Positions 16,948-63,100 of a stretch of 64,000 nucleotides of DNA are shown here, in pieces. How positions within the stretch are numbered: position 1 is the stretch's first letter; each line of letters begins with the position of its first letter. The notes below the pieces were generated by a model. The model was not told the origin of the DNA. It did no database searches and saw only the letters and a list, made by a program, of their open reading frames with translations. The translations under genes were made by a program, and so were the position numbers. This stretch comes from Chiloscyllium plagiosum (taxonomy: Eukaryota), in NCBI RefSeq assembly GCF_004010195.1, contig NC_057749.1, positions 9,177,070 through 9,241,069 on the forward strand. The letters run 5' to 3'.

Positions 16948-17282
16948 CTACGCACAATGCAAAGGAATGACAAACTTGCAACCAAAAGGTGAGTGATAGG
17001 AGATTCCCACTTCCTGGAAAACCTTTTTTGGTATCCCAATATCACAGAGATAGACCCTGCCAGCACTTTCCCCCAGTGGCAAAGGCAGGCCCACGGCTAG
17101 AGACCACTTGGCATCAATGACATGCTCCAATTCGCCCACAGGTGGGTCAATGCTCAACACCGGAGCTCGATTCTGGTTGGCCCATTCGACTGCTGCTCTG
17201 TACCATGGCTGCTCGCGAAGAAACGGGTTCTCGTGGCAGTCAAGACAATTGATCACCAAGTCAACAGGAGTGTCAGGCAAGT
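16948..17282 (-). CDS. EDC3: EDC3 last coding exon (335 nt including TAG stop)
   Basis: Translates (D)LPDTPVDLVINCLDCHENPFLREQPWY...LCDIGIPKKVFQEVGISYHSPFGCKFVIPLHCA*, the EDC3 C-terminus. Acceptor cttccag|AC, stop at 16948-16950. Confidence 0.97.
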
Positions 17283-17594
17283 CTGGAAGTTTAGCAAGCA
17301 AAAAGAAAACGTTACTTGAGAAAGATATAGGAAATAATTTTGAATGCAAATACCTCCTTGTGTCAAGTCTAAAATTTAATGTTGAAATCTGCTTCACTAT
17401 ATTTGGGAAAAAGTGGAAACTGGGAAATGGCAACCAAGTTGGCAGGTGCTGGATGAACAGGCAAGATAGATCTGGACCTAGAATCAAAGTAAATTTGGAT
17501 CTAGTACCAAGGTCTAGCAATAATATAACTCGGCCATCATCTCCCCCTTCGCCTCTCTATTATAAAATAGACAGTGAGTGTAGAGTTATATAAC

Positions 17595-21380: not shown

Positions 21381-22167
21381 GGCTGTATTAGGTTGTATTT
21401 CACATGATCTGCAAATATCGCTAAGTGCTCTGGACAGATGCAGCTTGCCTTTGAGGATATTTAAGAGACCTGCAATCATGAAAATTAAATATTAAAATAT
21501 TTAATTTGAAAAGGCAAGTGATTAATGCTGTTGACACCAATTCAGAGAATACAATTGCACGGGGCTGACATTCAGTACGCGATTCTTCCAAACTTCAACA
21601 TTTTAAAGAGACTTCAGTTCACATTATAAAATTAATTACTTGGAAGCATACGGGTTTGCTAATTGGGAAATATATAAGTCATTTTTCACACAGATTAATT
21701 CAACAAACAGGCATCAAGTTAATGGTCAGTTAATCTTTTCCCTTCAGTTTCAACAACGTAGCACTTCTTCTGTACTATGCTGGGGTTTCAGGCTAGATTG
21801 CATACTCAAGTTCTGGAAAGGGACTTGAAGCAGCCATTTGGCTGCTGCCAGAAGCAGACTCCAAAAACTAATTATAATTATCTTACATGTGCCTGGTGAA
21901 TTTACCATCCAAACCACCAAAATAAAAGTTTAGAATTAAAATAAGTAGGACCTTAGCCAAGGCCTGATTACTTATATGGCAGAAAGTAAATAGATGCAAT
22001 CCCATGCAGTGAAGATCTCCAATTAGTGCATGCGCTTTGTGATAGGCTTCTCAAAAACTAAGTTCAAGGCTGGGCTGGTATTCAGTACCTTTACACACAC
22101 AGATTCATGTACCACAATAAATAAATAGGGCATAAAACAAAATTATACAAGCTTGATGATGACGCAC

Positions 22168-22385
22168 CTTTCACACTGGCCACTTGTTTGCTTTCTGTCT
22201 TGCTGAAGAGTTGCAGCTCAGTGGTGATACACTCCAGCATCTTCACAAAGTTAGGCAGGAACAGGATAACTTGTACCTGGTGGTTGGCAAGGTGGCGGCC
22301 ACAGCTGATCCCCTGAGCGCCCTTCACATGTGGTCCACACAACAAAGCAACGGTTGGACGCTGGTGAACATTCTTGGGGTTTAAC
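22168..22385 (-). CDS. EDC3: EDC3 penultimate coding exon (218 nt), YjeF-N domain
   Basis: Translates (R)LNPKNVHQRPTVALLCGPHVKGAQGISCGRHLANHQVQVILFLPNFVKMLECITTELQLFSKTESKQVASVK. Acceptor ttcaag|G, donor AAG|gtgcgt. Enters in phase 2 and exits in phase 1, consistent with both neighbours. Confidence 0.96.
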
Positions 22386-22488
22386 CTTGAATATAAATAC
22401 CTTGATTTAACTTTTAAGCAAAACCAGACTTGCAATCACATTAAAGTATTGCATGACATACAAAAAATGACAACTATCTGAAGACCAA

Positions 22489-24249: not shown

Positions 24250-26170
24250 TATTTAAACAGCATGAAACATCACAGAGCCCTAACAGTACAGAAGTCAATG
24301 GAAATAGGGGGAACTCTCTCTACTAGTTGGAATCACAGTTAGCACAAAGGAAGATCATTGTAGTCACTGGAGGTCAGTCATCTCAGCAGTAGTTCAAAGC
24401 AGCATCCTAAGCCCAAGCATCTTCAACTGCTTCATTGAACTTCCATCTGTTATAAGATCAGACATGGGGGGATTCACTGACAATTGCTTAATATTCAATA
24501 TCACCAGCAACTCTTCAGATACAAAAGCAATCCACATCCAAGTTCAACAAAATTATGACAATATCCAGGTTTGGGCTGACAAGTGGCAAGTAGGATTTAG
24601 GCCACACAAGAGCCAGACAATTATTGTAATTATTGTATCAAACAGGAAAATACGACTTCGGCCTTTGACATTGAACTACATTACAATAGCTGAATTGCCC
24701 CACTAACAGCATGCTGGGTGGGGGGGGAAGGGGGAGGAGAGAGAGAGAGAGAGCGCGAGCGCGAGAGAGCGCGAGCGCGAGAGAGAGAGAGCGCGAGAGA
24801 GAGAGAGCGCGAGAGAGAGAGAGCGCGAGAGCGCGAGAGCGAGAGAGCGCGAGAGCGCGAGAGCGCGAGAGAGAGAGAGCGCGAGAGAGAGAGAGCGCGA
24901 GAGAGAGAGAGCGCGAGAGAGAGAGAGCGCGAGAGAGAGAGAGCGCGAGAGAGAGAGAGCGCGAGAGAGAGAGAGCGCGAGAGAGAGAGAGCGCGAGAGA
25001 GAGAGAGCGCGAGAGAGAGAGAGCGCGAGAGAGAGAGAGCGCGAGAGAGAGAGAGCGCGAGAGAGAGAGAGCGCGAGAGAGAGAGAGCGCGAGAGAGAGA
25101 GAGCGCGAGAGAGAGAGAGCGCGAGAGAGAGAGAGCGCGAGAGAGAGAGAGCGCGAGAGAGAGAGAGCGCGAGAGAGAGAGAGCGCGAGAGAGAGAGAGC
25201 GCGAGAGAGAGAGAGCGCGAGAGAGAGAGAGCGCGAGAGAGAGAGAGCGCGAGAGAGAGAGAGCGCGAGAGAGAGAGAGCGCGAGAGAGAGAGAGCGCGA
25301 GAGAGAGAGAGCGCGAGAGAGAGAGAGCGCGAGAGAGAGAGAGCGCGAGAGAGAGAGAGCGCGAGAGAGAGAGAGCGCGAGAGAGAGCGCGAGAGAGGGA
25401 GAGCGCGAGAGAGAGAGCGCGAGAGAGAGAGCGCGAGAGAGAGAGCGCGAGAGAGCGCGAGAGAGCGCGAGAGAGCGCGAGAGAGCGCGAGAGCGCGAGA
25501 GCGAGAGCGCGCGAGAGCGAGAGGGACAGCGAGAGAGAGAGCGAGAGAGAGAGAGCGAGCGAGCGAGAGAGAGATAGAAGGAGGTTACATTGACCAGAAA
25601 CTGTATTAGACTAGCCATATAAGTACTTTGGCTACAAGAGCAAATCACGGGTTAGAAATTCTGGACTCACTCACCTCCTGATTCCTCGAAGACTGTCCAC
25701 CATCTACATGGCACAAATCAGATAAGTGATAGAATAGCCCCCCATTTGCCTGGATGAGTGCTTTGCCAAAACTCAAGGCATGTGACATCATCTAAAACAA
25801 AGCAGACAGCTTGACTGGCCTCCCACATTCATTTACTTCAGCAGACAATGGCAGCAGTGTGTACCATCCACAAGATGCACTACAATAACTCAAAACTCCT
25901 TCAACAGTACCGTCCAAACCTCAACCACCTATAATAGGGCAGCAGATACATGGGAACTCTTCCAGCTGCTAGATCCTGTCCACATCACACTCCATCTTGT
26001 CTTGGAAGTACATTGTTATTCTGGAACTCTCTTTAGAGAGAAGCTCTCTCTAATAACAGCACTGTGGATGTCTGCACACCACGTGGACTAAAGGAGTTCA
26101 CAAATGTTAGGTCACCATATCTTCTCAATGGAGAAGATAATGTTGGCCTAGATACCAATGCTCACATTAC
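24250..26170 (+). mobile_element. Old LINE (CR1/L2-related) RT and 3' end, split by a microsatellite
   Basis: MGGFTDNCLIF (FADD equivalent) and NIQVWADKWQVGFRPHK motifs. Confidence 0.7.
24737..25573. repeat. ~840 bp compound satellite, mostly (GCGCGAGAGAGAGA)n with a 14 bp unit
   Basis: Read directly. The core is homogeneous and the edges are degenerate. Confidence 0.98.
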
Positions 26171-32781: not shown

Positions 32782-33684
32782 TCACCACCTACAAGTGAAC
32801 CCCACCACCAGGAATATATTTCCCTCCCTGCCCGTATCCACTTTCCGCAAAGTCCATTCCCTCAGTGACTCTGTGGTCAGGTCCACACCCCCCAACAACC
32901 CGCCCTCCCCTCCTGGCACCTTGCCCTGCCACCTCAGGAATTGCAAAACCTGCACCCACACCTTCCCCGTCACCTCCATCAAAGGCCCCAAAGGAGCCTT
33001 CCATATCCATCAAAGTTTCACCTGCACTCCCACAAACGACATTTACTGCATCTGTTGCTCCCTATGCAGCCTCCTTTACACTGGGGAGACTGGATGCCTT
33101 CTCACAAAGCGCTTCAGGGAACATCTCCGGGACACCCTCACCAATCAACCTCACCACCCCATGGCAAATCATTTCAATTACACCTCCCACTCTGCCGAGG
33201 ACATGCAGGTTCTGGGCCTCCTCCGCTGCCACTCTCTCACCACCTAAAGCCTGGAGGAAGAATGCCTCATCTTCCACCTCGGTACCCTTCAACCCCAGGG
33301 CATCAATGTGGACTTCACCAGTTTCATCATTTCTCCTCCCTCCACCTTACCCCAGTTCCAAACTTCCAGTTCAGCACCATCCTCATGACCTGTCCCACCT
33401 GTCAAATCTTCCTTCCCACCTACCCACTTCACCCTCTTCTCCTACCTATCACCTTTACCCCTTCCTCCATTCACCTACTGCACTCTCAACTACCTTCTCC
33501 TCAGCCTCACCCCCACCCATTGAATGTTTCTACCCCCAAGGATCCCAGCCTCATTCCTGATGAAGGGCCCGCGCCCGTAACGTCGATTTTCCTGCTCTTC
33601 GGACGCTGCCTGACCTGCTGTGCTTTTCCAGCACCATTCTAATCTTGACTCTAATCTCCAACATCTGCAGTGCTCACTTTCCCC
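32782..33684 (+). mobile_element. PLE 3' part: GIY-YIG endonuclease, pLTR and tail
   Basis: CKTC...IYCICCSLCSLLYTGETGCLLTKRFREH is a PLE GIY-YIG domain. A premature stop follows. Hammerhead motif in the pLTR. Confidence 0.92.
33553..33588 (+). ncRNA. Minimal type I hammerhead motif, mutated (GUAA in place of GAAA)
   Basis: CTGATGA-a-gggc-ccgc-gccc-GTAAC-GTC. Confidence 0.65.
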
Positions 33685-35653
33685 TATGTAGTAGGGGTAG
33701 CTTTATGTCATTTTTAAAAATACTTGCAGTAAAGGCTATGAGCTTATTAAATACTCAAAACTATTCGCGCTTTGGAGATTAAAATCTCAGTGCACTAGCT
33801 GGAATTTTTATTTAAAATCTTTTACCCAAGGTCCGATTTCCTGCCATCCTACTAAATGCATTGATTCCTTAACAAGAAAGATGGAGGCACACTATCACAA
33901 TCATATACTCCTCCAGAATTCGATCTGGATCTGCAAATCTAGTCAATAATGTATCCGGGTACTGAACTGTGGAAGACGACATTATAGCAATCACAATCTT
34001 GTCCATAACCTATCAGAGTACATATCGAATCCCCTACCAATGCAGGCTGCAACTCTAACATCCCCGACACCTGTTCCACCTGAAAAGAGGAAGCAAATGT
34101 TCCTGATCTGATGGGCTCATCCCTCAGTTTTAAGTAGCTACAAGAGTGGGCAAGTTACAGTTTATTCATTCAACTGAACTTATAAGCAATAATCAATAAT
34201 ACTCAAGGCAGCTTTTGAAGAACTTTTTGAAGGTTATGCTTTGATGTGACAGCCAACCAAAACGATTAACTTCAAATAGCATGAATCCCCTTCAAGTCCC
34301 TGATGCTTTAATTTAATTTCTCCCTGGACATACTTTGCCATAGCAACTTGTACTTTCCAACAGTTCCGGTATTTGCAAAAGTAACCCAAGAGATGATAGT
34401 AGTCACTTAAAGAGCATTAAGCCTTCAGGGATCGAAACAGTCTGATGGCTCCTGATACACATACTTAAATACAACAAAAAATGTGTTGGTCAGTCAGGTG
34501 TATTTCTGTTGTTTGCCGCAGCCTGCTTGCACGCCACTGGAGAAATTCTGAACATGCAGCTCAAACTCAGCACATACCAATTACATAGCAACAAAACGAA
34601 AAGAATGAGGAAACTGCTACAGTTTATTTAAGTCTAAAATACACCGTTTGTAAACTATGGGTTGCCAAGAAACAGTGATACTTAACACGCAACGAATTGG
34701 CACAGATGCTTTCCCTTCAGAAAAAGGAATAATATTTTTGAAGGCTCCTGTCACACAAATGTAGCCCACCACAAGATAGAGATCTGTAAAGTGGAGACTA
34801 CGTGGTTATAATCAATTACATTAAAACAATGACACTTGGCACTTTGTGACAAAGTGGACCTTCTATCAGCTCTGGAACCAGAGCTTTCATGCTCTAGAGA
34901 AACAGAAAACTTCAGGAATCAATCTGATATGCTACAAATTCAGAAATAAAATATATGCCCCTTATATCCAACTAAGCAGGACATGCTCAGTTACCTCCAA
35001 ATTTAAAAATAATTTACAAATAATTTATAATCTGGAGAACATAAGTGTGCAAATCATAATCCTGAGAGCACTTGTGGGTGAACTACCATGGCTGAATTTC
35101 AGAGCTCAGGTACTTGTATTGGTTTGAAAGCAATGACCATTTTGTTTTAACTTTCCCTGCTCATTAAGAACAGCCCAATCAGAAAAATTAACAATGAACC
35201 TTAAGTGCAAACATAGTTAATGCTGGCAACTGTAATAATCTTACACATCACAATACATAATATTAAATTCTGCAACAAAATGAATTAGTGGTGCCAACAA
35301 GTATAATATATCATTTTATTATGGACACAGCCTCTTTGCAGGTTCTAAACAATGGATACTGGCCAGATATTAAACAAAGCAAATCGCGCCACATCTAAAC
35401 TTGTGTGCCATAAGAAACACTTAGTAAAACAATACATCGGCTGTTGAATAGATCAAAGCTTCCCACTGCACTTGGCAAAAATCTTGATATGTGGTACAAT
35501 GCAACCTAGCAATCGCTTTGAAACATGACAAGACTGCACCGGAGCAACAAACAACAAAAGAAAATTAGTTGAAAACATACATTTCCTGAAGCATATATAG
35601 AATCATAGAGATGTACAGCATGGAATCCTAAGAAGGAGGAAGAACGATATTAG

Positions 35654-42839: not shown

Positions 42840-44950
42840 GTATAGAAATGTTGTAGCACAGAAGAGATCAATCTGCCAATCCTGTCCATTCGGACCCAAA
42901 GATGCTCTTTATAATCCTGTCTTCCAGGATGTGGCCTATAGTCTTTGCAGCTTACAGCATTTAAGGTGCTGATCCTGATGCTTTTTAAAAGAAGAGTTTA
43001 GTGTCTCTGCCTCCAACACAAACTCAGGCAGTGAATTCCAGCCAGCCACCAAACTCTCCATAACAAAGATTTTCCTTAAATCCTCTCTAATTTTTCTGCC
43101 ACTTGGTTTGAATCTGTGACCCACGGTTTCTGAACTCTCTGCCAAGGGAAACTGGTATCTTGACCCCTTATAATTCTGTCTATCTCAATCATGTCACCTT
43201 TCTCTGCTCCAAGGAAAACAATCTCCATCTCTCCAATGGTTCTAACACTTTCTTTCTCGTCATGATTGTGCCCAATAAATCACACTGCTCCTCTTGGATT
43301 GCTATATCTACATCATCCCATTTCTTTGAGAGTACGGAGACAAAAATTTCATTTAAAATTCTTCCTATACCCTCTACATCTTCAAACAAGTTGCCTTCTT
43401 AATCTCTGATAGGTCTCACTTTTCCATTAGCTGCCCTTTTGCTGTTTAAATAATGGTAAATCATCTTTGGGTTTCCCTTTATCTTGCTTGGTAATTTTTT
43501 TTTCTAAAATTTGTTCCCTATACTTTCTACCCTCCTCTAGGTTATCTGCAGTGTTGAGTCATTTTGTGACTATCTTAAGTTTTTTTCCGGCTTAATATTC
43601 CCCTGCATTTTTCCAGTCAACCATAGGATTTAGAGGAGATGGAGCTGAAAATGTGTTGCTGGAAAAGCGCAGGTCAGGCAGCATCCAGATAGATGGGTAT
43701 AAATGTAGACAAATTTCTGCCTGTAGGAATAAGGTGGCAATAGTTGGAGAGTTTAACTATCCCCATATCAGCTGGATTTTGAACAATAAAAAGGGCTTTG
43801 AGGATGAAAACAACATGTACATCCAGGAATTTCTTTTTAAACATAACTGATAAGCCCAATGTGGGCATGCCCGAAACGTCGATTCTCCTGCTCCTTGGAT
43901 GCTGTCTGACCTGCTGCGCTTTTCCAGCAACACATTTTCAGCGCTGATCTCCAGCATCTGCAGTCCTCACTTTCTCCTTTTAGAGGGGATATACCTTAAG
44001 GATCTCACTCTTTAGTGCCTCCCATTGGTTTACCACTGATGTGCCCTTTCGCAGTCCTGTCCAGTCCATCTCAGACAAATCACATGCCTGTACTGTAAAA
44101 TTTGCCTCCCATTAAAACCTTTTATGCCTGATTCATCTGTGCTTTGCAATAATATTAAATCTAGCCAAATTGAGGTCACTATCCCCAATATAGTCACAAA
44201 CTGTCACTTTTCCCATTTGCCCACCTTCATTTCCCAAACTAAGTCCAGAATTGCATCACCTCTCATTGGGCTTATCAGTTATGTTTAAAAAGAAATTCCT
44301 GGATGTACATGTTGTTTTCATCCTCAAAGCCCTTTTTATTGTTCAAAATCCAGCTGATATGGGGATAGTTAAACTCTCCAACTATTGCCGCCTTATTCCT
44401 ACAGGCAGAAATTTGTCTACATTTATACCCATCTATCTCCCTCCCACTACAAGGATTATGGTATTGTGCTAGTAGTGAGACTGCCCCTTTCTTAATTCCT
44501 ATGTTCAACCCATAATGCCTCATTTATTAAACCTGTTTAGTATATCATGCCTTCTCACAAATGTAATTGATTCTTTAGCCAATACTGCTACCCCACCTCC
44601 CCTTTTTTGTCACCCACTCTATCCCCCTGAAAACTGAGCTGCCAATTCTGTCCCTCTTTTAGCCAGTTTTCTGTTATAGCAACAACATTGTGTTGCCATG
44701 TGGCTATCTACGCCCTTAGTTCATCTGTCTTGTTTATAATAACCTTTGCAATGAAGAATAAGCAGCTTAACCCTATCAATTTTCATTGCTGGATATTTCT
44801 GGAAAATCCTCATTTCTTTTCATCTTTGAGTTGCTGACTACACCACTAAAGTTCCACCTCCTATTTCCTGATCTGAATCGGACCCATCTTGGTCTACAAA
44901 CTGGTTCCCAACCACTACAATACTCATTTAAAAACCACACCAACGGAGCT
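42840..44950 (-). mobile_element. Old CR1-clade LINE with deletions, hosting a PLE insertion
   Basis: VAGWNSLPEFVLEAETL (3' part) and IVGEFNYPHISW (APE domain) motifs. Confidence 0.8.
43641..43978. mobile_element. Fold-back PLE terminus enclosing 175 bp of captured local DNA
   Basis: Inverted pLTR arms at 43641-43686 and 43862-43978. TSD tttagaggagat / tttagaggggat. Confidence 0.88.
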
Positions 44951-47471: not shown

Positions 47472-47507
47472 ATTCCTAATGAAGGGCTTATGCCCGAAAC
47501 GTCGATT
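47472..47507 (+). ncRNA. Minimal hammerhead motif, mutated (CUAAUGA)
   Basis: CTAATGA-a-gggc-ttat-gccc-GAAAC-GTC. Confidence 0.65.
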
Positions 47508-48699
47508 CTCTTGCTCTTCAGATGTTGCCTGACTGCTGTGCTTTTCCAGCACCACACTCTGACTCTGATCTCCAACATCTGCAGTCCTCAGTTTCTCCAT
47601 AAACTAATATGAAACAAACTCATTTCAAAAATCATGAAGATTCAACCTTTTTACCACTTACCTCCACTGTTCCCTCCCAAATAGTCTGAGAGACAATACC
47701 TCAGTGAAGAATCAGCCCACAGCAATGCTCCTTGCTCTGCTAGCATAGCCGCAAATTATTTCCTTTTCAGCAGATTTCTTTGCATTCACTTGATGGCATA
47801 TTCCTCTACTGTTTCTCCCTAAGCCTTTAGGTAAGCTTCAGATCACTATTGCTACATGACATGGGATCCTAAAACTTGTGTCTTTGATTAAATTGTGGGA
47901 CGGCTTCTGCTTACATCTCCAAAGTTTTCTACTTCTGAAGTTTACTTCTGGGCAACTCAGGACTTCTCCCTAGCCTTGTCCTGTCTATTTTTGGAAACTA
48001 TTATGAACCATGCTGATCATCAGCCTCTTCCCTTGAAATGAAGCCTTTTCTGGTCTCTTAATCAAGTCTGCCAACACCATAGTAACATTATCCCACGTGT
48101 CTGGCTAATAACTCAGTCAAAAATTAAATTTTCTTTGGAAATGCTGTTTTAATTCATTTTTCAAAAAAAGTCAGTCAAGCCTTCACAGAAGGGATAACAT
48201 TTTCTGCCATTTCAGGACCCAAATTCCCCCCCAAAAAAATATTGTGAGCCTTCATCATAGGTTAAATAAGACATCAGAAATTTATTACTTGTTTTGAAAT
48301 TCAGGTGAAAATAATTTTTTGAAAAACAAAACTGAATATTGTTCTAATTTAATAAAAATTCACAATGTGTACGTTTGACTATAAATTACATTTTAATGCA
48401 ATGAGTGGCATGAGGACATATCTTGGAAAAGATTATTATACAACACATTGGTGTCTCTGATGCTGTCACATTGCAATTGCACAGAGTTTGTAACAGGAGT
48501 AACACACAAAAAGTAACACCAACATAGGTAGTGATGTTATCACAGTCTGAACTTCTGTCAGAACAAGTGTCACATGCTACAACTGAGAAAACAAAAGAGT
48601 ATATAGAAATTATTTCTCCTTCAAAAAATATGATTAGCATAATCATGATTCTCCTTATTTCTTCAAAGTATTCGAGAGATAGACAAAAAAAACTAAATG

Positions 48700-52955: not shown

Positions 52956-55900
52956 CTGATCAGATCAGTTTCTGCCAAAGATGGACCTTGGACTGGCAAA
53001 AACAGAGGGAATATTGTTACCATCTACTGACACTTTAAAAACATTTAAGATATGAAGATCTTCACATCACTTAATAAAAGTGAATACAATTATTTCAGCT
53101 TGATTGCATAATTTAAGCATTGCTCGTTATTGGGGTCAGTCAGCATTGCACAATCCCATTAAAATTAACTAGCACTATTATTTAACAATTGCTTTTATAC
53201 TCCATTTCTAGCTTTACATTTTAAAAAGAAGTAACTGGTGGTTTCACCATAGTGCTGGTTGAAAGCAGAAAACAAATTTGTGCATCTACTTGCTCAACTC
53301 TAATCCAAATTTTCTTTAAAATATCTCATGTTTATCATCTGTATCTCACCAGTAGTCAACATTCTGCCACTTGCTCTTTCAGTTTCATTAATTTCACTTG
53401 CAATTCTGAGTCTCTCAATAGTTTTCTCATTGCATTAAATCCTCAGTTGACGTTCAAAGCATTTTTGCACCCTTGTTTTTATCACATTACGTTTTAGTAT
53501 CCTTTTACGCATTGAGAATTACCTTCAAACTCAAGGTATCATGTACATAGTTGAAGTCACTACAGCATTATTTCTTGTAGAGAACTGTAATATATTGAAC
53601 AGTGTGAAAGTTCAAGACTTAAAACTGAGTAATGAAGCAAGCTACCTTTTAATATTGCATAGGGAACAGCAAAGTGGCATACTTAAAATTACAATGCTCT
53701 GCGAGAAAAATGTACTGATTAACATTTTCATAATGGATGCTACAAATATTTAAGTTGCAGCTACACAAAGCCACTGCTTTAGAGCTGGATTATTTCCAAA
53801 TCCACTCCATCTTTCACAATGGGGATCAATATTTGAATCTCAGAACCAATCTGCAAGTACCTACCGCAGAAACAATATTCCTGGCTGAGTATAGCGCAGC
53901 ACTGCTCAAAGTGAGTGAATTTCACAACTCTGGAGCAATGCTTTAGTCTGACTTGCAGGATTTTATTGAACTGAACTGAATGAGTCATTTTAGAATGTAA
54001 GGAATGGTGGATAGAAGAAAAAGGAAGCCTTTCCTAAGGCTCAGCTTGAACTGGAGTCATTAGGGGTGAATATTAAGCAATGAGAAACTCAATTCCAGAT
54101 GAAGCCATGTCATTGTCCACTGTAACAATGAGGTTAATTTTGTACGTCATTGCTAGGATAGTCATCAGCACAGCATGTTCTATCAATCATGGTAACAAGC
54201 ACCTCATGCACTTAAAACAGCATGGGAGCTGACACACCAAGTCTTGCAATTTTCATGGGGCGCACTCAAAGGCAAAGCATTCCAACTTTCAGAACTTTGC
54301 TTCCACCTCAAACAAGCAGTATAAAGAATAACCATTCCTATACAATGCCAGGTAGCATGCATACCTGAACACATTAGACACAGTACAATAAAACATGTGG
54401 GAATAATTAAAAGTTAGTATGTTTGAGATTTCATTTCAAAGCAGCTGAAGAGGTGTTAAATATTACACAAACATTCAGAAAAATACCTTTCAGTTTTAAT
54501 AATGTGTCATGTTGAGGACATGTTTATCAGACTACAGGTAACTGACAACAACACAAACAGATTGGCTGTAAGGCACTTTTGGAAACTGAGGACATGAAAA
54601 GTACTCTATTAATGCAAGTTCTTGCTTTCTCATTTTCTTGCATGGAACAAATTACCATATGTGTGAAATGTGGATTCGGAATTAACTTCATAATATTTAT
54701 CTAAATAATTACTTAGGTAGATGTACGTATTGTAATTCGCCTGAATGTGCGTGATGCACCACAAATTGTGTCCGGTAAACAGGGCAAAAGCCTGTACAAT
54801 TTAACCAAAAAGGAAACAGAGAAACAATGCACTTTGCTCTAATTGATAATAAATAGTCTGTCTGGATGGAGTTATTGGCTGCCAAGCCAACTTCCCGTCA
54901 AGTACACACGCGATGTATAACCTGCCCTGAGAGGTTATCGGTAGACTTGCAGCACAACCCTAAAACTGCAAATATGATAAACTATAAAAGGAAAAGAATC
55001 AAGGTCATACCACAGCATGCACACAACAGTAACACTCCACCTCATTGAAGGAAATTTACTTGACTCAAAGCCAACAATAACTACAACTGGATTAGTGCTG
55101 TAAAGTTTTCACCTCACGAAAGATACTCATTGCATTTTCCATTACAGGACAAGTTTATCATATCATTTTGTAATAAAAACAAAATGCCTTGATAGTCCCA
55201 AGTTCGTAAATGCAGCACAGAGCTGAACAATACAAACAGGGCATTCAAGGATTAGTGATTGGGGACAGTGTGCTGCAAAAAGCAAAGCTTCTCTTTGCCA
55301 ACAGGATTCAGCTTTGCATAGAGGTTTTGGACTCAGGGATAATGTCCTCTGTGATTAAATAACCCACCAAAATTCTATTTAAAAAACAGCCACTTGGACC
55401 AGGTATAAAAACACTGCTTTAAGGAGACAAAGGGCAGAGATGTAGAAGCAAATGTTCCACAAACAAATTTTGGTCATATACTAAAAGTTTATCAGCTTAT
55501 GGAAGAAAAAGCAATATGCTTATTGGAGTACCTCAGATGCATTTTCAGTCATTTGTCTTTTAATCATTCTCAACTTTGATGTGGAAACACCAAACTGCAC
55601 TCATCAGAAAACACAATTAAATGTTGGGCTTATACGATTATGCACTTTAAGCCAAACAATTAGTTTGCGGTGCCACTAAAGGCACAACACTGGATTTTGA
55701 AAAGGCAGAGGTAGAATGCAACTTAATATGGAAGAGATACAATGATCATAGTCTGCTTACACTAAAGATAATGGCAAGGCTTATTTTAGGAAACTGCACT
55801 CGCATTTTTGATGTTAGGTTTCTCGTGAATCTAGACTTCAAACAGAAGAGACTTGATCCAAAGGAGCAGAAAGAAAGCTCTCCTCTTTTATATACTATCT

Positions 55901-56339: not shown

Positions 56340-57597
56340 AGCAGCATATGTCAGGTACAGACAGGATAGATCGAGTGAATCCTTAGAAGAGTATAAAGAA
56401 AGTAGGAGTATACTTAAAAGGGAAATCAGGAGGGCAAAACAGGGACATGAGATAGCTTTGGCAAATAGAATTAAGGAGAATCCAAAGGGTTTTTACAAAT
56501 ATATTAAGGATAAAAGGGTAACTAGGGAGAGAATAGGACCCTTAAAGATCAGCAAGGCAGCCTTTGTATGGAGCCACAGAAAATGGGGGAGATACTAAAT
56601 GAATATTTTGCATCAGTATTTACTGTGGAAAAGGATATGGAAGATATAGACTGTAGGGCAATAGATGGTGACGATCTTGCAAAATGTCCAGATTACAGAG
56701 GAGGAAGTGCTGGAGGTCTTGAAATGGTTTAAGGTGGATACATTCCCAGCACCTGATCAGGTGTACCCGAGAACTCTGTGAGAAGCTAGAGAAGTGATTG
56801 CTGGGCCTCTTGCTGAGATATTTGTATCATCAATAGTCACTGGTGAGGTGCCGGAAGACTAGAGGTTTGCTAACGTGGTTCTACTGTTTAAGAAGNNNNN
56901 NNNNNNNNNNNNNNNNNNNNNNNNNNNNNNNNNNNNNNNNNNNNNNNNNNNNNNNNNAACATGGCTTTGTGCATGGGAAATCATGTCTCACAAACTTGAT
57001 TGAGTTTTTTTGAAGTAACAAACAAGATTGATGAGGACAGAGCAGTAGATATGATCTATATGAATTTCAGTGAGGCGTTCGACAAGGTTCCCCATGGGAG
57101 ACTGATTAGCAAGCTTAGATGTCATGGAATACAGGGAGAACTAGCCATTTGGATACAGAACTGGCTCAAAGGTAGAAGACAGAGGGTGGTGGTGGAGGGT
57201 TGTTTTTCAGACTGGAGACCTCTCACCAGTGGAGTGCCACAAGGATCGGTATTGGGCCCTCTACTTTTTGTCATTTACATAAATGATTTGGATGCGAGCA
57301 TGAGGTACAGTTAGTAAGTTTGCAGATGACACCAAAATTGGAGGTGTAGTGGACAGGGAAGAGGGTTACCTCAGATTACAACAGGATCTGAACCAGATGG
57401 GCCAATGGGCTGAGAAGTGGCAGATGGAGTTTAATTCAGATAAATGCGAGATGCTGCCTTTTGGGAAAGCAAATCTTAGCAGGATTTATACACTTAATGG
57501 TAAGGTCCTAGGGAATGTTGCTGAACAAAGACCTTGGAGTGCAGGCTCATAGCTCCTTGTTTCCACGCTCTACATCTCTATGACTCTATGATTCTAA
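56340..57597 (+). mobile_element. CR1-clade LINE ORF2 fragment spanning an assembly gap
   Basis: [34 protein letters not shown] and KFADDTK motifs. An internal deletion joins it to the tail near 57558. Confidence 0.95.
56896..56957. other. Assembly gap (62 N)
   Basis: Run of N. Confidence 1.
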
Positions 57598-59301
57598 GTA
57601 AAAGAGGAACTCTCACCAGAGTGAACTCTATAGTAATGACAGCCCAGCCTTTGAGGTCAGCAGTGATGACAGTTGCTTTGCTGCTGCCCACCAAAAACCA
57701 TTAACTTTACATAGCTTCTAATTCTTCACCTAAAAGTAATTCCCAGTAAATCAATAGTAGCCACTGAAATAACTACGTTCTTAATGTTAGTCAAGCGCTA
57801 AATTTGGAAAGATAAAAAAAGCTGTATAGTTGCATACTTCACAGTACACAAATCACTGTTGTTAGCCAAAAAAAGTGAATGAAAAATTGCATGTGGTATT
57901 GGTATGGCAAAGTTTCAGATTTCATATCACATTTTACCAAAGTCCCCATGACTATACTTATATAGGTACAAAGGGCAAATGAGCAAGTGAAGAGTTTAGC
58001 AAGATTTTTTTTTCAAAAGCATCAAGGTAACTGAGAACTTTAATCCATGGATTAAAACAAATGCTGGAAATTCAAGTTCAACATTTCATTTTCTCCAATT
58101 GAATTTTGTTAAGAGTGGAACAATGTGATTAAATACAGTACCTGAAGATGTAGGTTAGTGATAGAAAAGTAAAGATATACATGACTAACTTTCACTAGCA
58201 CACTTTCACTAAAAATAAAATTAGCTTCTTTGGAATACCAGCTTCTCAATGAATTTCCACCGGCCACTATATTAAGCCAGCACTCCATTACTATCTCTTG
58301 CCTTCCTCTATAGAAGACTTCAAGTTTGAAGTAATCATCTAACTAAAGTCCCCGTACCAGAATTTCAAAATGCCGATTAGAAAAAAACTGTTTTGATGAG
58401 CCATGCTGCACTGTCCATATGCAAAAGTGAAGTTGTAATAACCACTTGACTGAACACTGCAGCTTTCAAAATTTAAACTATGCAAGCTGAAAATTGTAAA
58501 CAAGCCAGTCACTTTCAACATCATTTATCAAATGTTGGGCTCAGCAACCAGTGAAAGCTCACTCACTCAGACATTTAGAGCGAAGTTTCCCTCTTGATGT
58601 TTTCAACAATACGCAAGTCTGCAGTTCGGCTGTTGTTTCTCAGCACATCTTGGTGTCAGCTCATTTATTTACTTGCCCTAGTTTGGTCAACTTCATTTAA
58701 TAAGCTTTAATGCTAGTTTGACTGGCTTAATTTTCAATGTTATCTGTAATATATAAAGGTTAATTTTCAAAAATATAATGATGGTAGCCATCCCCAAGCT
58801 TTTCACCTCATCTTTCAAATTAGGAAACTTTCATTTTCCCCACACGTAACTGATGTCACTCTTGCACAAACAAATGGATTCAATCCTTTGAAATCAGTTT
58901 AAGCAAAACGGCATTGCAATATTTAATATTACATGGCACAAATATCAATGCAACACAAAACAAATGATATTCTTAATAAGGAATAAAAGAATTTTTGGCT
59001 TTCATCAACACCTTCTATTGACAAGACAACTTAGAAACTAACGTACACCTTTCTTTCCTGTGGGATAAGCCAGTTGTGGTTTTAAGTCAGCATTCTTGCA
59101 GTTCTCATTATAAATGCAAGACTATAAACTTTGGCACCAGTTCTCGCTTTTCAGCAATATTAAAGATAAAATGGGGTTGGAATGAATTGACAAATACATG
59201 ATAACGAGGCAAAAACAAAGATTGCAAATGCTGGAAACCAGATACTGGATTAGTGGTGCTGGAAGAGCACAGCAGTTCAGGCAGCATCCAAGGAGCAGCA
59301 A

Positions 59302-59335
59302 AATCGACGTTTCGGGCAAAAGCCCTTCATCAGCC
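59302..59335 (-). ncRNA. Minimal type I hammerhead motif, intact core, stem I disrupted
   Basis: Same core on the minus strand (59306-59333). The 5' strand of stem I is replaced by the fold-back junction. Confidence 0.6.
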
Positions 59336-59371
59336 CTTCCTGATGAAGGGCTTTTGCCCGAAACGTCGATT
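59336..59371 (+). ncRNA. Minimal type I hammerhead motif, intact core
   Basis: CTGATGA-a-gggc-tttt-gccc-GAAAC-GTC. Predicted cleavage after 59367. Confidence 0.75.
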
Positions 59372-60199
59372 TCGCTGCTCCTTGGATGCTGCCTGAACTG
59401 CTGTGCTCTTCCAGCACCACTAATCCAGAATCCAAATACATGATAACGACTTGCTGAATATGTTGTTAGCACATGATAGGCATTTTTAATTAAAAAGAGT
59501 CAGAGGGGTCTTTTGTTTAAGCGGTATTTTCTCTACCTCTGATTCAGAAAGTCCAGACTTAAGTTGCAGCTATTCCAGTGGTGTGGCTTGTCTGAGCAGC
59601 ACCATTAAAAACAACAGTGATAGTGTGGCCAATTAATTAAGCATCCAACTGAGGACAGTACTTTTAACGGAAGACTATGTCCAAATCTACAATTGTTTGG
59701 AAGCCTTGTGGTTTGAAAGCACATGTTTTATGAGCAAGGAGATCATGAGCTTGACTTTCAGCAACACCACTATTGTTTCTAGGGTCTCCTGTGGTGCAGT
59801 GGTAATATGGAACAAAAGATCAGAGTTCAAGTACTATCCAGGATGTGATGGGCAGAGTTATCCCACAACACATCCAGGCAGCTTAACCAGATAGATTGAA
59901 AAAAGAAATTCAAAGAGGGTCAGGTGCTCATGTGGCGCAGTGATAACACCGTCAATGCTTCATTTTAAGAGTGTCATGTAATGCAGTGGCAGTGACCCTA
60001 CTTCTGGGTTGGAAGGTCCAGATTCAAGATTGGACCAAGTTCTCAAAAATGTGATCAGAATAGTTTTGTGGTCTTTTTGACTGACGTGGACACAAGGGCC
60101 TTTTTCTCAGTGCTGTAGATCTCTGTGCCTAACATTCTCCCCTTTCCTCTCCCTCAACAGGTTGATGAAACATTATTGTAAAGAGTATCAATTTGGATA

Positions 60200-63100
60200 C
60201 TGGATTTTAATTGCTCTATTTTAATTGCAGCGAGGGCAGATAGAACAAGGACCAGGAAGCTGCCAGTAAAGTAAGCAAAACGTTTGAAAAGCTTCCCTTG
60301 GGAGTCTGCTGCCTCCATTTTAATTGCAGCGAGGGCAGAAAGGAGGAGGACAATGGGGCTGTCGGGAAGGTAAACAAACCATTTAAAAAGCTGATATATT
60401 TAGGCAGCAGCTGAACTAGAGACACTATCACCTGCTCCCCCTCCTCTAACCAAAGAGAAGGTCTCTGTGGTGTGTTGACAAGGTAAGGATTTTGGCAAGT
60501 ACAGGTAACTTAATTAAAAAAAACTTTTCTTTTTCATAACTTCAGTCTCAACTTAGCTAAAGCTTACGATTAAAAGTGGTAGGAGATCTCAGACCCATGT
60601 CATGCTCCTCTTGCTGAATGTGAGCACTCAGACACAGCTGGTGTCCCTGGCTCCTTCACTTGCAAGAAGTTTGGACAGCACGTTTAGTGAACTGGTCACA
60701 CCGCAAATTAGGACTGCTGAGGGAGAGGGGGAATGGATGACCAAAAGGCAGCGAAAGAGCAGAAAGGCAGTGCACGTGTCCCCTGCAGTCATCTCCCTCC
60801 AAAACAGGTAGACCATTTTGGATACTATGGGGGAGATGGCTCACTAGAGAAAGGCAGCAGTAGCCAAACTTAAGGCAACGTGGCTGGCTCTGCTGTTCGG
60901 AAGTGTGGGGGAAAAAAGTGGAAGGGCTATAGTCAATGGGAATTCATGTGTAAGGGGCAGAGATAGACGTTTGTGTGACTCCTGAATGAAATGTTGCCTC
61001 CCACGTGCAAGGCTCAGGGTGTCTCCGATTGCCTGCAGAAAATTCTCAAAAGGGAGGGTGAACAGCCAGTTGTCATGGTACATGTTGGCACCAATGATAT
61101 AGGTAAAAAAACAGGATAAGTCCTACAAGCGGAATTTAGGGAGTTAGGAAACAAGTTAACAAGTAGGACTTCAGGAGGCAGTAATCTCAGGATTTCTACC
61201 AGTGCCACATGCTAGTCAGAGTAGGAAGGATAGAATAACCAGGATGGATGTGTGGCCTGAGAAATGGTGCAGGAGGGAGGGATTCAGATTTTTGGAAATT
61301 TGGGACCAATTCTGGGGGAGGTGGGACTATTACAAATTTGATGATCTACACCTGGGCCAGATTGGAACCAATCTTCTTGGGGGTGCTTTTGCTAATGCTA
61401 TTGGGGAGAGTTTAAACTAACATGGCAGGGGAATGGGAATCAAATGAGGAGGTTGGACGATAGGAAAGAGGCAGTAACTAGAGCCTGTAAGGAACAAGAC
61501 AATGAAGTCAGCGTGACTAAAGAGAAAAGTAGGCAGGAAGCGGAAGATGAACACAGAGGGACAGGTGGTCTGAGGTGCATTTGTTTTAATGCAAGAATTA
61601 TAGTAGGTAAGGCAAATTAACTTAGGACTTGTATTAGTACCTGCGAGTATGAGGTTATTGTTATTACTGAGACTTCGTTGAGGGAAGGGCAAGATTGGCA
61701 ACTAAATATCCCAGGATATCATCAAGTGGGATAGACAGGGAGGTAAAAATGGGTGGAGGAGTTGCATTACTGCTCAAAGATATCACAGCTGTGCTGATGG
61801 AAGGCACTATGGAAGACTTGAGCAGTGAGGCAATATGGGCAGAGCTCAGAAATAGGAAGGGTGCGGTAACAATGTTGGGGCAGTACTACAGGCCTCTCAA
61901 CAGCGAACATGAGAAAGAGGTATAAATATGTCAAGAGATCATAGAAAGACTTAGGAGCAATGGGGTGGTGGTGATAGGAGATTTTAATATTAGAGGTCGA
62001 GATGGAGCGGAAGTTTGTAAAGAGCATCCAGGAGAGTTTGAGAGCAGTATGTAAATAGTCCAACTTGGAAAGGGGCCATACTGGACCTAGTTTTGGGAAA
62101 TGAGCCTGGCCAGGTGATTGAAGTTTCAGTAGGGGATTACTTGGGGAAAGTGACAGAATTTCATAAGTTTTAGAACACTCATGGACAAAGATGAGAGTGG
62201 TCCTAAAGGACGAGCGCTAAATTGGGGGAAGGCCAACTATACCAATATTCGGTAGGAGCTGGGGAATGTAGATTGGGAGCAGCTGTTTGAAGGGAAATCT
62301 ACATTCAATAAGTAGGAGGCATTTAAAGAAAGGTTGATCAGAGTTCAGGAGAGAGATGTTCTTGTGAAAACAAGGGATAGAAATGGCAAGTCCTGGGGAA
62401 AATTAATGTACGGAGAGATCTAGGAGTTCTGGTCCATTGTTCCTTGAAGGTGGCACACAGGTCATTAGAGTGGTCAAGGCAGCATACGGCATGAATTCCT
62501 TCATCGGACATGGTACTGAGTACAAAAGTTGACAAATGGCCACATTGGGAATACTGCGTACAGTCCTGGTCGCCACATTACCAAAACGATGTGGATGCTT
62601 TGGGGAGGATGCAGAGGTGGTTCACCAGGATGTTGCCTGGTGTGCAGGACGCTGGCTAAGAGGAGAGGAAGAGTAGATTAGAATTATTTTCATTGGAAAG
62701 GAGGAGGATGGTGTGGGGGGGGGGGGCGAACCTGAATGAGGCGTACAAAACCTTGTGAGGCAAAGATTGGGCAGATAGCAAGAAACTTTTTCCCAGAGCG
62801 GAGAACTCAATTACTAAAGGTCACGAGTTCAAAGCGAGAGGGGAAAAGTTTAGGTGAGATATACAGGGCATGTCCTTCATGCAGAAGGTGGTAGGTGCCT
62901 GGAAACTGTTGCCAGTGGAGGTGATGGTGTGGGGATGATAACATCATTTAAAAATGTATCTATACAGATACATGAATAGGCTGGGAACAAAGGGATGCAG
63001 ATCCTTAGAAAATAAGTGGCAGATTTAGATAGAGGATCTGGATCGGCATAGGCTTGGAGGCCCTAAAGGCCTGTTCCTGTGCTGTAAGGTTCTTTGCTCT
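60200..63100 (+). mobile_element. Decayed CR1 LINE with 5' UTR, ORF1 (zinc finger and SGNH esterase), APE domain and 3' end; RT core deleted
   Basis: CSSC..., VMVHVGTNDIG and DDLHL (ORF1). CFNAR and YYRPLNS (APE). The sequence jumps to the C-terminal region near 62400. Confidence 0.88.

Follow-up and report, generated by a model that had tools for sequence, protein, structure and literature searches.

The 225-nt insert at 59208-59432 of the 64,000-nt window analysed here, a stretch of the Chiloscyllium plagiosum genome (contig NC_057749.1, 9,177,070 to 9,241,069), is almost certainly what one integration event of a Penelope-like element (PLE), probably an endonuclease-bearing one, left behind: an insert that lacks an ORF and was dead on arrival. 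Its make-up is nearly as good as certain, too: of the element, nothing but the terminal ~93 nt is present, twice and head to head, with a tail on one of the two copies. On our best reading, both arms were copied from one short template, the 5' end of which lay just upstream of the ribozyme, and we consider it probable that this account is the best explanation as a whole, covering the identity, the origin and the present inertness of the insert. The insert is real but ordinary: the genome has ~2,800 of these close head-to-head junctions, and inserts of this kind have been described before. On its own, it matters little, for it is an old and inert remnant, located in an intron, of a class of retroelements that is well described. 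Its value is rather that of a clean example from a large natural data set, which comprises 2,825 junctions, many of them with intact duplications. This data set constrains how PLEs integrate: there is a tail on exactly one arm, the short arm stops at the end of solo copies, and the turn-round is clustered. In-vitro studies of how the second half of the PLE integration cycle proceeds could take these regularities as a guide.

The insert is enclosed by an exact 17-nt direct repeat, the target-site duplication (59191-59207 and 59433-59449). Read along the plus strand, the left copy of this duplication is followed by a 33-nt tail (59208-59240), an extension beyond the short 3' end that belongs to the left arm only, lies outside the palindrome and matches positions 93-126 of a long-ended copy, L053. 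The left arm (59241-59333) comprises positions 0-92 of the PLE terminus and is antisense on the plus strand, so that the element sense of the tail-bearing copy is the minus strand. It is separated by a 6-nt centre, CCCTTC (59334-59339), from the tail-less right arm (59340-59432), which comprises the same positions in sense orientation and ends at the family's short 3' end. The two 93-nt arms were recovered as an inverted repeat and are 98% complementary, with two mismatches (59244 vs 59429 and 59300 vs 59373), the second of which is a T/C difference at a CpG. In alignments to the reference copy, identity amounts to 94% for the left arm with its tail (59208-59333, which covers reference positions 0 to 126) and to 97% for the right arm (positions -3 to 93). 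Next to the plus-strand core, the last 3 nt of the centre agree with the upstream sequence of the family, which leaves three C unexplained. Repeat analysis thus reproduces the duplication, the arms, the mismatches and the loop that the earlier note had described from the letters alone. Its statement that the insert consists only of a PLE terminus and its inverted copy stands for the inverted pair, but not for the word 'only', as the tail is found on one arm alone.

A tail on one side only is the published hallmark of endonuclease-bearing PLEs (PMC3846280, PMC8557442, PMC11167929); such a tail, borne by one of two inverted pLTRs, has been described together with palindromes where the inverted copies meet (PMC3846280, PMC8557442). 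In a related locus (L035), a protein fragment directly upstream of the terminus aligns to a shark protein of 486 aa (residues 405-441, 31 of 37 identical), whose matches to GIY-YIG (354-386, 21.7 bits) and RVT_1 (1-120, 16.4 bits) lie below the Pfam cut-offs of 22.6 and 29.6, respectively. A search of the genome for the GIY-YIG family, in which 150 of 14,403 first-look candidates were scored, gave one match, on a 1,000-nt contig. When the fragment that precedes the terminus was compared with a protein atlas, one weak lead emerged at rank 16, with a cluster in which 15% of the members carry GIY-YIG. Around the insert itself, a Pfam search with the 110 open frames of at least 55 aa between 45.9 and 64 kb yielded no match at or beside it, and the nearest match is an RVT_1 fragment at 57000-57549. 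We also considered the RT fragments beside the terminus in the loci L052 and L035 as the element's own RT and rejected them as neighbours, which we take to be LINE-type from CR1/L2-like LINE motifs in their translations.

Both strands carry the same 30-nt minimal hammerhead core (59340-59369 on the plus strand and 59304-59333 on the minus strand), with which each arm begins and in which CUGAUGA, stem II, GAAAC and GUC are matched without a mismatch; none of 100 shuffles gave such a match. The CUGAUGA box, the GAAA box, the UH cleavage triplet and the type I order are present on either strand. In the plus-strand core, there is an extra A at 59347, and a 4-bp stem II (GGGC/GCCC) with a UUUU loop spans 59348-59359 and is predicted in all three folds that were computed. 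Helix III is replaced by the palindromic ACGU at 59363-59366, the very short stem III that had been noted earlier, which would imply action as a dimer, and the cleavage point, predicted from the sequence only, would follow the C at 59367. Outside the core, the ribozyme is incomplete. In place of a helix I of ~4-5 bp with a loop 1 and a closing stem, only a C-G and a U-A pair are found before mismatches set in, and for the distal closing stem, which is predicted in the full copy L053, the 5' strand is absent from the insert. The description of an 'intact' hammerhead on each strand therefore applies to the core, but neither to helix I, with its two contiguous pairs, nor to the distal stem. An Rfam scan of 58500-60200 returned no hammerhead family among 24 matches at E-values up to 10, and a scan of the whole window gave no hit that reached the gathering score. 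The sub-threshold matches are microRNA precursors, the best of which is MIR6136 (49 bits vs a gathering score of 99), and arise because the palindrome forms a perfect hairpin.

The transcript of the insert is indeed predicted to fold into a single long hairpin (-192 kcal/mol, z = -24), in agreement with the earlier suggestion of a ~93-bp hairpin that masks the ribozyme. In the host pre-mRNA, both cores would accordingly be buried in this hairpin, each of them without a usable helix I, and the insert presumably does nothing catalytic at present. Cleavage by the hammerhead was also examined as the source of the insertion ends and rejected, as none of the copies examined begins at the predicted cleavage position (+27).

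The evidence supports a location of the insert within an intron of an EDC3-like gene, as had been supposed. By contrast, the earlier note's view of a recent integration has to be abandoned: contigs of another species label contain the two junctions as well, with flanks that differ by ~3-5%, and an insert shared by this second label is not recent. No contig that joins 59207 to 59450, and would thus represent the empty site, was found in four runs; contigs drop variants, so this leaves fixation unproven, and one of the runs (X9) has no coverage of the left flank. The locus may show palindrome instability: a contig from one further individual (run X5) runs directly from 59253 into 59451.

The insert belongs to a very large family. 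Its 30-nt core, the commonest of the family, occurs 15,996 times as an exact match in the 3.56-Gb genome, and exact 12-mers of the core are found 96,768 times, compared to 82 for the control. Head-to-head cores at most 30 nt apart exist at 2,825 sites genome-wide, and a search for the loop junction of the insert retrieved 88 sites with the identical 22-nt centre. The turn-round just past the ribozyme, where the earlier note had placed it, is no idiosyncrasy of this copy but a genome-wide hot spot. The turn-round clusters within ~10 nt upstream of the hammerhead, in a sample that required both cores to lie within 30 nt of each other and hence under-represents turn-rounds farther upstream. Among 31 same-centre loci that were examined (the window and L001-L030), there are 11 different duplications, which identifies them as independent insertions. 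Even so, a shared centre is the exception: 40 unselected junctions have 38 different centres, of which two recur, each twice.

Across family copies, the duplication measures 10-17 nt, and in each of the 27 palindromic copies with an exact duplication of at least 10 nt, the tail is found on one side only. Together with the layout of the insert, this bears out the earlier assignment to a single integration of a PLE terminus with an inverted duplicate, a one-sided tail and a target-site duplication. The same asymmetry is seen in the arms. In 52 of 54 analysable palindromes, one arm extends to 111-126, whereas the other does not go beyond 98; this second arm usually stops at 86-98, and in 12 of the 54 it is cut short at 14-70. 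For comparison, 30 random single copies comprise 18 long-ended and 12 short-ended ones, a split at which mixed pairs would be expected only about half the time if the choice of ends were independent. Nine of these 30 are simple insertions, with their start 0-18 nt upstream of the core. Five of the 12 short-ended copies (L031, L035, L045, L047 and L056) are solo copies without a partner in the 3-kb locus and end at 88-97. The short arm thus ends where solo copies end, which makes its end look like a second priming site rather than the stop of a copy-back. Furthermore, the arms of L023 and L068 are 100% alike, although they are only 92-97% like the reference copy; this identity and the 98% likeness of the arms in the insert point to one template for both arms.

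How the palindrome came about is less clear than what it is. The reading we favour, and to which we give an even chance, is priming on both target strands followed by a template jump. The RT-endonuclease of the element would nick the two target strands 17 nt apart, and each nick would prime cDNA synthesis on the same short RNA, whose 5' end would lie 0-10 nt upstream of CUGAUGA. One strand would start at an inner initiation site (~93) and the other at an outer one (~126), which would account for the tail; at the 5' end of the RNA, an end-to-end template jump would then continue one cDNA on the other, with 3 extra nucleotides, and so create the palindrome. The turn-back of reverse transcription proposed in the earlier note is retained as a rival, albeit a distinctly less likely one: here, a cDNA primed at the outer site would fold back at the end of the template and copy itself, and the copied-back strand, ending at the tail boundary through a cut or a stop, would be joined to the other end of the target. 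Such snap-back self-priming fits the near-identity of the arms, and it fits the tail-bearing arm being always there while the second arm is sometimes short; for the 12 arms cut short at 14-70, a copy-back that stopped early is in fact the simpler explanation than priming on two strands. In the literature, self-priming is offered for the palindromes at inverted PLE junctions (PMC3846280), and the tail is ascribed to an endonuclease-mediated resolution of an intermediate (PMC8557442). What self-priming does not predict without an extra cut is the usual stop of the second arm at the 3' end of partnerless solo copies, and the end of the cDNA has no self-complementary stretch for priming. The centres point in both directions: by a hand tally of 40 unselected junctions, a small sample, 32 have an unpaired centre of at least 2 nt, as a hairpin loop would leave, but 8 have one of 0-1 nt and none has one of 3 nt, which is hard to reconcile with an intramolecular loop and speaks for the jump. 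Two-strand priming, in turn, has to contend with an in-vitro study that saw equal use of the start sites on both strands, and nothing published requires one site per strand (PMC11167929). Moreover, the microhomology at some short-arm ends, where the duplication overlaps the arm by up to 5 nt, fits end joining equally well, and the recurrent CCCTTC filler is explained by neither of the two readings.

Other origins appear far less probable. A palindromic master, that is, a mini-element transcribed and retrotransposed as a unit with an inherited centre, would explain why the identical 22-nt centre recurs in old and young copies at 88 sites, and why some same-centre arms (L002, L004, L018 and L025) are truncated as if from a 5'-truncated hairpin RNA. 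We nevertheless regard it as improbable: the variety of centres among the unselected junctions implies that most palindromes arise anew, the same centre is found in subfamilies with different tails, and a fully paired hairpin would be a poor template for RT. In addition, the RNA of such a master would end at 93 on its 3' side, without the outer start site, which is at odds with a tail that is never missing. An assembly artefact, in which a fold-back chimeric long read yields a false palindrome, is very improbable still, although long-read libraries are known to produce palindromes by error and none of the contigs from the compared runs spans the whole insert. Against it, short-read contigs of one run (X1) cross both the left (58950-59257) and the right junction (59409-59700), and in the second species label (X14), the right junction is crossed by a contig, and on the left, a bubble unitig extends as far as 59225. 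As the element has opposite orientations at the two junctions, the inverted arrangement must lie between them, and there are thousands of similar structures with duplications of their own. Finally, 93-nt terminal inverted repeats with a flanking duplication might suggest a MITE or foldback DNA transposon moved by a transposase. We rejected this reading, which has next to no chance of being right, in view of the duplication, which varies between 10 and 17 nt among copies, and the asymmetric ends with their strictly one-sided tail; besides, the arms derive from a retroelement, of which they form the 3' end and which is also found as simple 5'-truncated copies.

Returning to two-strand priming, the palindromic stubs might even be the footprint of a coupled integration, in which a dimeric RT-endonuclease acts on one short RNA, with the inner site used by one protomer and the outer site by the other, and the two cDNAs are joined by a template jump at the RNA 5' end. 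We put this forward tentatively and think it rather doubtful. If it were true, however, the strict one-tail rule (27/27) would testify in vivo to a mechanism with one site per strand, of which in-vitro work has given no description, and a defined RNA 5' end would adjoin the ribozyme.

Several known systems share parts of this picture. The 5' inversions of L1 reportedly arise by twin priming, a process that Ostertag and Kazazian are said to have proposed in 2001, in which both strands prime cDNA and the inverted segment comes to lie within one duplication. There, the inverted piece comes from elsewhere in the element, nearer its 5' end, whereas the insert has the same 93 nt twice. Non-LTR retrozymes are, like the insert, short, non-autonomous, hammerhead-bearing derivatives of PLE ends; they form head-to-tail tandems, are thought to give rise to circular RNAs and are reported as excluded from introns, whereas the insert is an intronic head-to-head pair (bioRxiv 10.64898/2026.07.22.740005). 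We rejected an assignment to this group, which needs tandem hammerheads in head-to-tail order, as those of the insert lie head to head on opposite strands.

The ribozyme resembles the minimal hammerheads of metazoan PLEs (Cervera and De la Pena 2014, PMC4209133). It shares with them the CUGAUGA and GAAA boxes, the G10.1-C11.1 pair and the palindromic 15.2-16.2 (ACGU) in place of helix III, as well as the massive, dispersed copy number and the occurrence of dual motifs on opposite strands. These dual motifs are 100-700 bp apart in that study but 6 nt apart in the insert, whose helix I has only two contiguous pairs and which has no distal closing stem. Published hammerheads of this kind need a dimeric form or a protein in order to cleave, and then do so poorly (PMC4209133, PMC11167929).

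A further comparison is with Poseidon, a PLE of Anolis carolinensis that was reconstituted in vitro (Frangieh et al. 2024, PMC11167929). Its protein, a predicted dimer, nicks and extends both strands and uses two adjacent internal start sites, the spacing of which equals the tail. As in the shark family, the hammerhead is located ~100-130 nt upstream of these start sites, and the insertion ends are not set by its cleavage. The Anolis ORF begins inside the hammerhead, whereas in the insert, the frame from that ATG stops after 17 codons. The Poseidon work is biochemical, and neither head-to-head products nor a one-site-per-strand rule are described in it. Close counterparts are the insertion units of the Pen families of Adineta vaga, with an inverted pLTR (PMC3846280; scheme in PMC8557442). 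The insert differs from them in that it has neither an ORF nor a direct pLTR between its inverted ends, in that both copies are cut to ~93 nt at the hammerhead, and in its duplication of 17 nt, compared to 8-10 nt in the rotifer copies (PMC3846280). Otherwise, the two systems match: both have head-to-head terminal copies with a palindrome at the junction, a one-sided tail of 30-40 nt, a duplication of variable length and heavy 5' truncation.

The insert at 59208–59432 (225 nt) lies between two copies of an exact 17-nt direct repeat, the target-site duplication (59191–59207 and 59433–59449). It consists of two inverted arms of 93 nt each (59241–59333 and 59340–59432), a 6-nt centre (59334–59339) and a non-palindromic stretch of 33 nt at one end, the tail (59208–59240). 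The arms differ at two positions, one being a T/C mismatch at a CpG and the other an A/T mismatch near the outer end. On both strands there is a mismatch-free hammerhead core of 30 nt, in which CUGAUGA and one additional A precede a stem II of 4 bp capped by a UUUU loop, followed by GAAA, ACGU and GUC; it was matched in none of 100 shuffles. The window sequence thus confirms the layout described in an earlier note, namely a palindrome with two cores and an exact 17-nt repeat. A long copy of the same family (L053) served as a ruler, numbered so that the C of CUGAUGA is 0. Measured against it, the left arm spans 0 to 126 and so includes the tail, while the right arm spans −3 to 93 and stops exactly at the short end of the family; the centre is made up of 3 nt of family sequence and three C. 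Four of the 33 tail positions deviate from the reference copy, and the whole left copy (arm and tail) is 94% identical to it, the right arm 97%, so that the tail looks either more diverged than the remainder or derived from a variant subfamily.

The family is abundant: in the 3.56-Gb assembly, whose contig C40 holds the window, the core 30-mer occurs 15,996 times (control, 0) and its first 12 nt 96,768 times (control, 82). Sampling covered the initial part of contig C1 or followed listing order, the latter applying to 30 random core copies (L031–L060). In these, the conserved element end comprises about 70 nt or more upstream, the core, about 63 nt up to a first recurrent end and a further 33 nt up to a second, which correspond to 93 and 126 on the ruler, a single young copy to which older subfamilies align over a shorter distance. 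Among the 30, long-ended copies number 18 and short-ended ones 12. Related subfamilies have left three older solo copies in the window, all on the plus strand (47476–47590, 43860–43975 and 33548–33690); among them, one has CTAATGA for the CUGAUGA box, one is truncated within the hammerhead and one has GTAAC for GAAAC together with a different stem II.

Head-to-head palindromes are a class in this genome and not an oddity. The genome has 2,825 sites with cores facing each other at a distance of at most 30 nt (control, 0), which account for 5.8% of all intact 12-nt cores; when the earlier note's suggestion of looking for an identical centre junction was followed, the exact 22-mer turned up at 88 sites, including that in the window. 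We examined 71 palindromic loci, a sample selected for close cores: the window, 30 loci with the same centre (L001–L030) and 40 with any centre, in listing order (L061–L100). Strict core matching placed 54 of the 71 on the ruler, and in all of these except L016 and L088 (52/54) one arm ends at 111–126 and its partner at 98 or less. Flanking duplications, counted only if exact and at least 10 nt long, are present at 27 of the 71 loci and measure 10–17 nt. Without exception (27 of 27) they adjoin one arm (offset −5 to +8) and are separated by 25–57 nt from the other, so the tail is one-sided only. The 31 same-centre loci show 11 distinct duplications, which identifies them as separate insertions. 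A CCCTTC/GAAGGG filler, whose sequence equals a 6-nt stretch of the hammerhead, is found again in many differing junctions genome-wide, also between arms that both reach further upstream, and looks like a short templated insertion.

The single duplication around the insert shows it to be the product of one integration event, as had been claimed. Arm-to-arm identity is 98% in the window and 100% in L023 and L068, two palindromes whose arms are only 92–97% like the ruler; since the arms are closer to each other than family members are, the comparison of sequences shows both to be copies of one template. The arm types are coupled as well, in that all 27 pairs combine a long and a short arm, whereas independent choice from the 60:40 ratio of solo copies would yield about half. 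The short-arm end is also that of solo short copies without a partner in their 3-kb locus (88–97; L031, L035, L045, L047 and L056).

The PLE (Penelope-like element) protein of Anolis, a predicted dimer, nicks the two target strands and extends both, and it initiates reverse transcription internally at a pair of neighbouring sites, the distance between which equals the tail (PMC11167929). For the insert, both nicks could have primed cDNA on one short RNA, one per start site, and at the 5' end of this RNA an end-to-end jump would continue one cDNA on the other; we give this two-strand route roughly an even chance. Snap-back self-priming, in which reverse transcription turns back on itself, was proposed both in the earlier note and in PMC3846280, and we regard it as a possible but rather doubtful origin. 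It would explain more simply why the second arm is cut short at 14–70 in 12 of the 54 palindromes on the ruler. However, among 40 unselected junctions, counted by eye, the number of unpaired nucleotides at the centre is 0–1 in 8 and 3 in none, a distribution that fits an intramolecular loop less well than an end-to-end join. The three C in the centre of the insert are explained by neither model.

Inner arm ends of the palindromes on the ruler cluster 0–13 nt upstream of CUGAUGA, a clustering imposed by the search criterion. Yet the hot spot is also found in unselected simple copies, since 9 of the 30 random copies are non-palindromic insertions starting 0–18 nt upstream of the core (L033, L037, L040, L045, L050, L056, L058, L059 and L060), a finding that suggests a shared short template with its 5' end adjoining the ribozyme. 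Four further sites in the random set hold inverted pairs (L038/L039, L044, L048 and L057). Among the copies aligned to the ruler, none starts at the predicted cleavage position; hence, in line with PMC11167929, hammerhead cutting does not define the insertion ends.

The published min-hammerhead has both boxes, an extra nucleotide after position 9, a G10.1–C11.1 pair and a palindromic stretch that replaces helix III (PMC4209133). The motif in the insert has all of these, with ACGU as the palindromic stretch. Nevertheless, we expect no self-cleavage of the insert, given that helix I has two contiguous pairs only, that the 5' strand of the distal closing stem predicted for a full copy is absent, that a single arm is predicted to adopt an inactive fold in which the CUGAUGA box pairs with the ACGUC stretch, and that both arms together would form a single masking hairpin (−192 kcal/mol, z = −24). 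Likewise, the Rfam hammerhead models match neither the insert region nor the whole window, and cleavage by comparable motifs in the literature is weak and requires dimers or the protein of the element (PMC11167929; PMC4209133).

With its duplications, the insert occupies C40:9236260–9236518, between minus-strand exons of an EDC3-like gene. The YjeF_N exons lie in the window (16951–17556 and 22094–22435), and the Edc3_linker exons (C40:9254438–9254533 and 9292479–9292655) and the LSM14 exon (C40:9298353–9298484) follow on the same contig, 13–57 kb past its right end. The insert is therefore intronic, which bears out a location raised in the earlier note, and the gene is transcribed from the minus strand; being palindromic, it would form a hairpin in pre-mRNA whichever strand is transcribed. 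Reverse-transcriptase (RVT_1) fragments of another retroelement (57000–57549, plus strand; 48 and 22 bits) lie some 1.6 kb upstream of the insert. Elsewhere in the window, a tandem array (24737–25573) of a GA/GC-rich 16-nt unit, with 53 copies and 91% matches, is open in all six frames, and a plus-strand open frame (53451–53750) with a weak RabGAP-TBC match (22.2 bits against a cut-off of 27) may belong, as an exon, to an adjacent or nested gene encoded on the opposite strand, or be due to chance.

Assembled contigs from short-read runs, which show presence but not absence, contain both junctions in run X1 (58950–59257 and 59409–59700). In X14, which carries a second species label, one contig covers 59409–59700 with 11 other letters and 4 gaps, a bubble unitig reaches about 59225, and a flank contig (58950–59172) differs at 7 of 223 places. 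The insertion is thus older than the split of the two labels and not recent. Of the earlier interpretation, the single integration and the intron stand, as does the underlying observation, but the recent age does not. No contig crosses the centre, whose words are repeated millions of times, and no empty site was seen among the read contigs. X5, a different sample under the same species label, has one contig of 1,575 nt in which 59253 is followed immediately by 59451. It lacks 197 nt, comprising the larger part of the left arm together with the centre, the entire right arm and the right-hand duplication, and 59444–59449 has no contig cover in this run; this single contig may represent an allele in which an unstable palindrome has lost 197 nt.

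The insert shows the structural hallmarks of PLEs, namely the one-ended tail, the inverted head-to-head copy, the variable-length duplication and the min-hammerhead. Coding evidence is only partial, as judged from sequence similarity: directly upstream of the terminus, L035 has an open frame identical at 31 of 37 positions to residues 405–441 of a 486-aa shark protein, and this protein has a GIY-YIG match (354–386) just below the Pfam cut-off and an RVT_1 match (1–120) below it. In 8 of the 30 random copies (L032, L041, L043, L046, L049 and L053–L055), the longer and presumably coding ones, the stretch adjoining the terminus on its upstream side is N. Much of the scheme is in print, including the general mode of PLE insertion (PMC8557442), the two start sites with two-strand activity (PMC11167929), and the min-hammerhead with dual motifs on opposite strands (PMC4209133). 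In the passages and literature searches that the comparison covered, we found no quantitative statement on strict one-tail pairing or on turn-round clustering at the hammerhead, an absence that is weakly founded. The PLEs described in PMC3846280 have a short duplication and inverted pLTRs that meet in a palindrome, one pLTR bearing a tail of about 31 nt, and the insert is built likewise; compared with this published structure, it is the minimal form, two ends with nothing between them.
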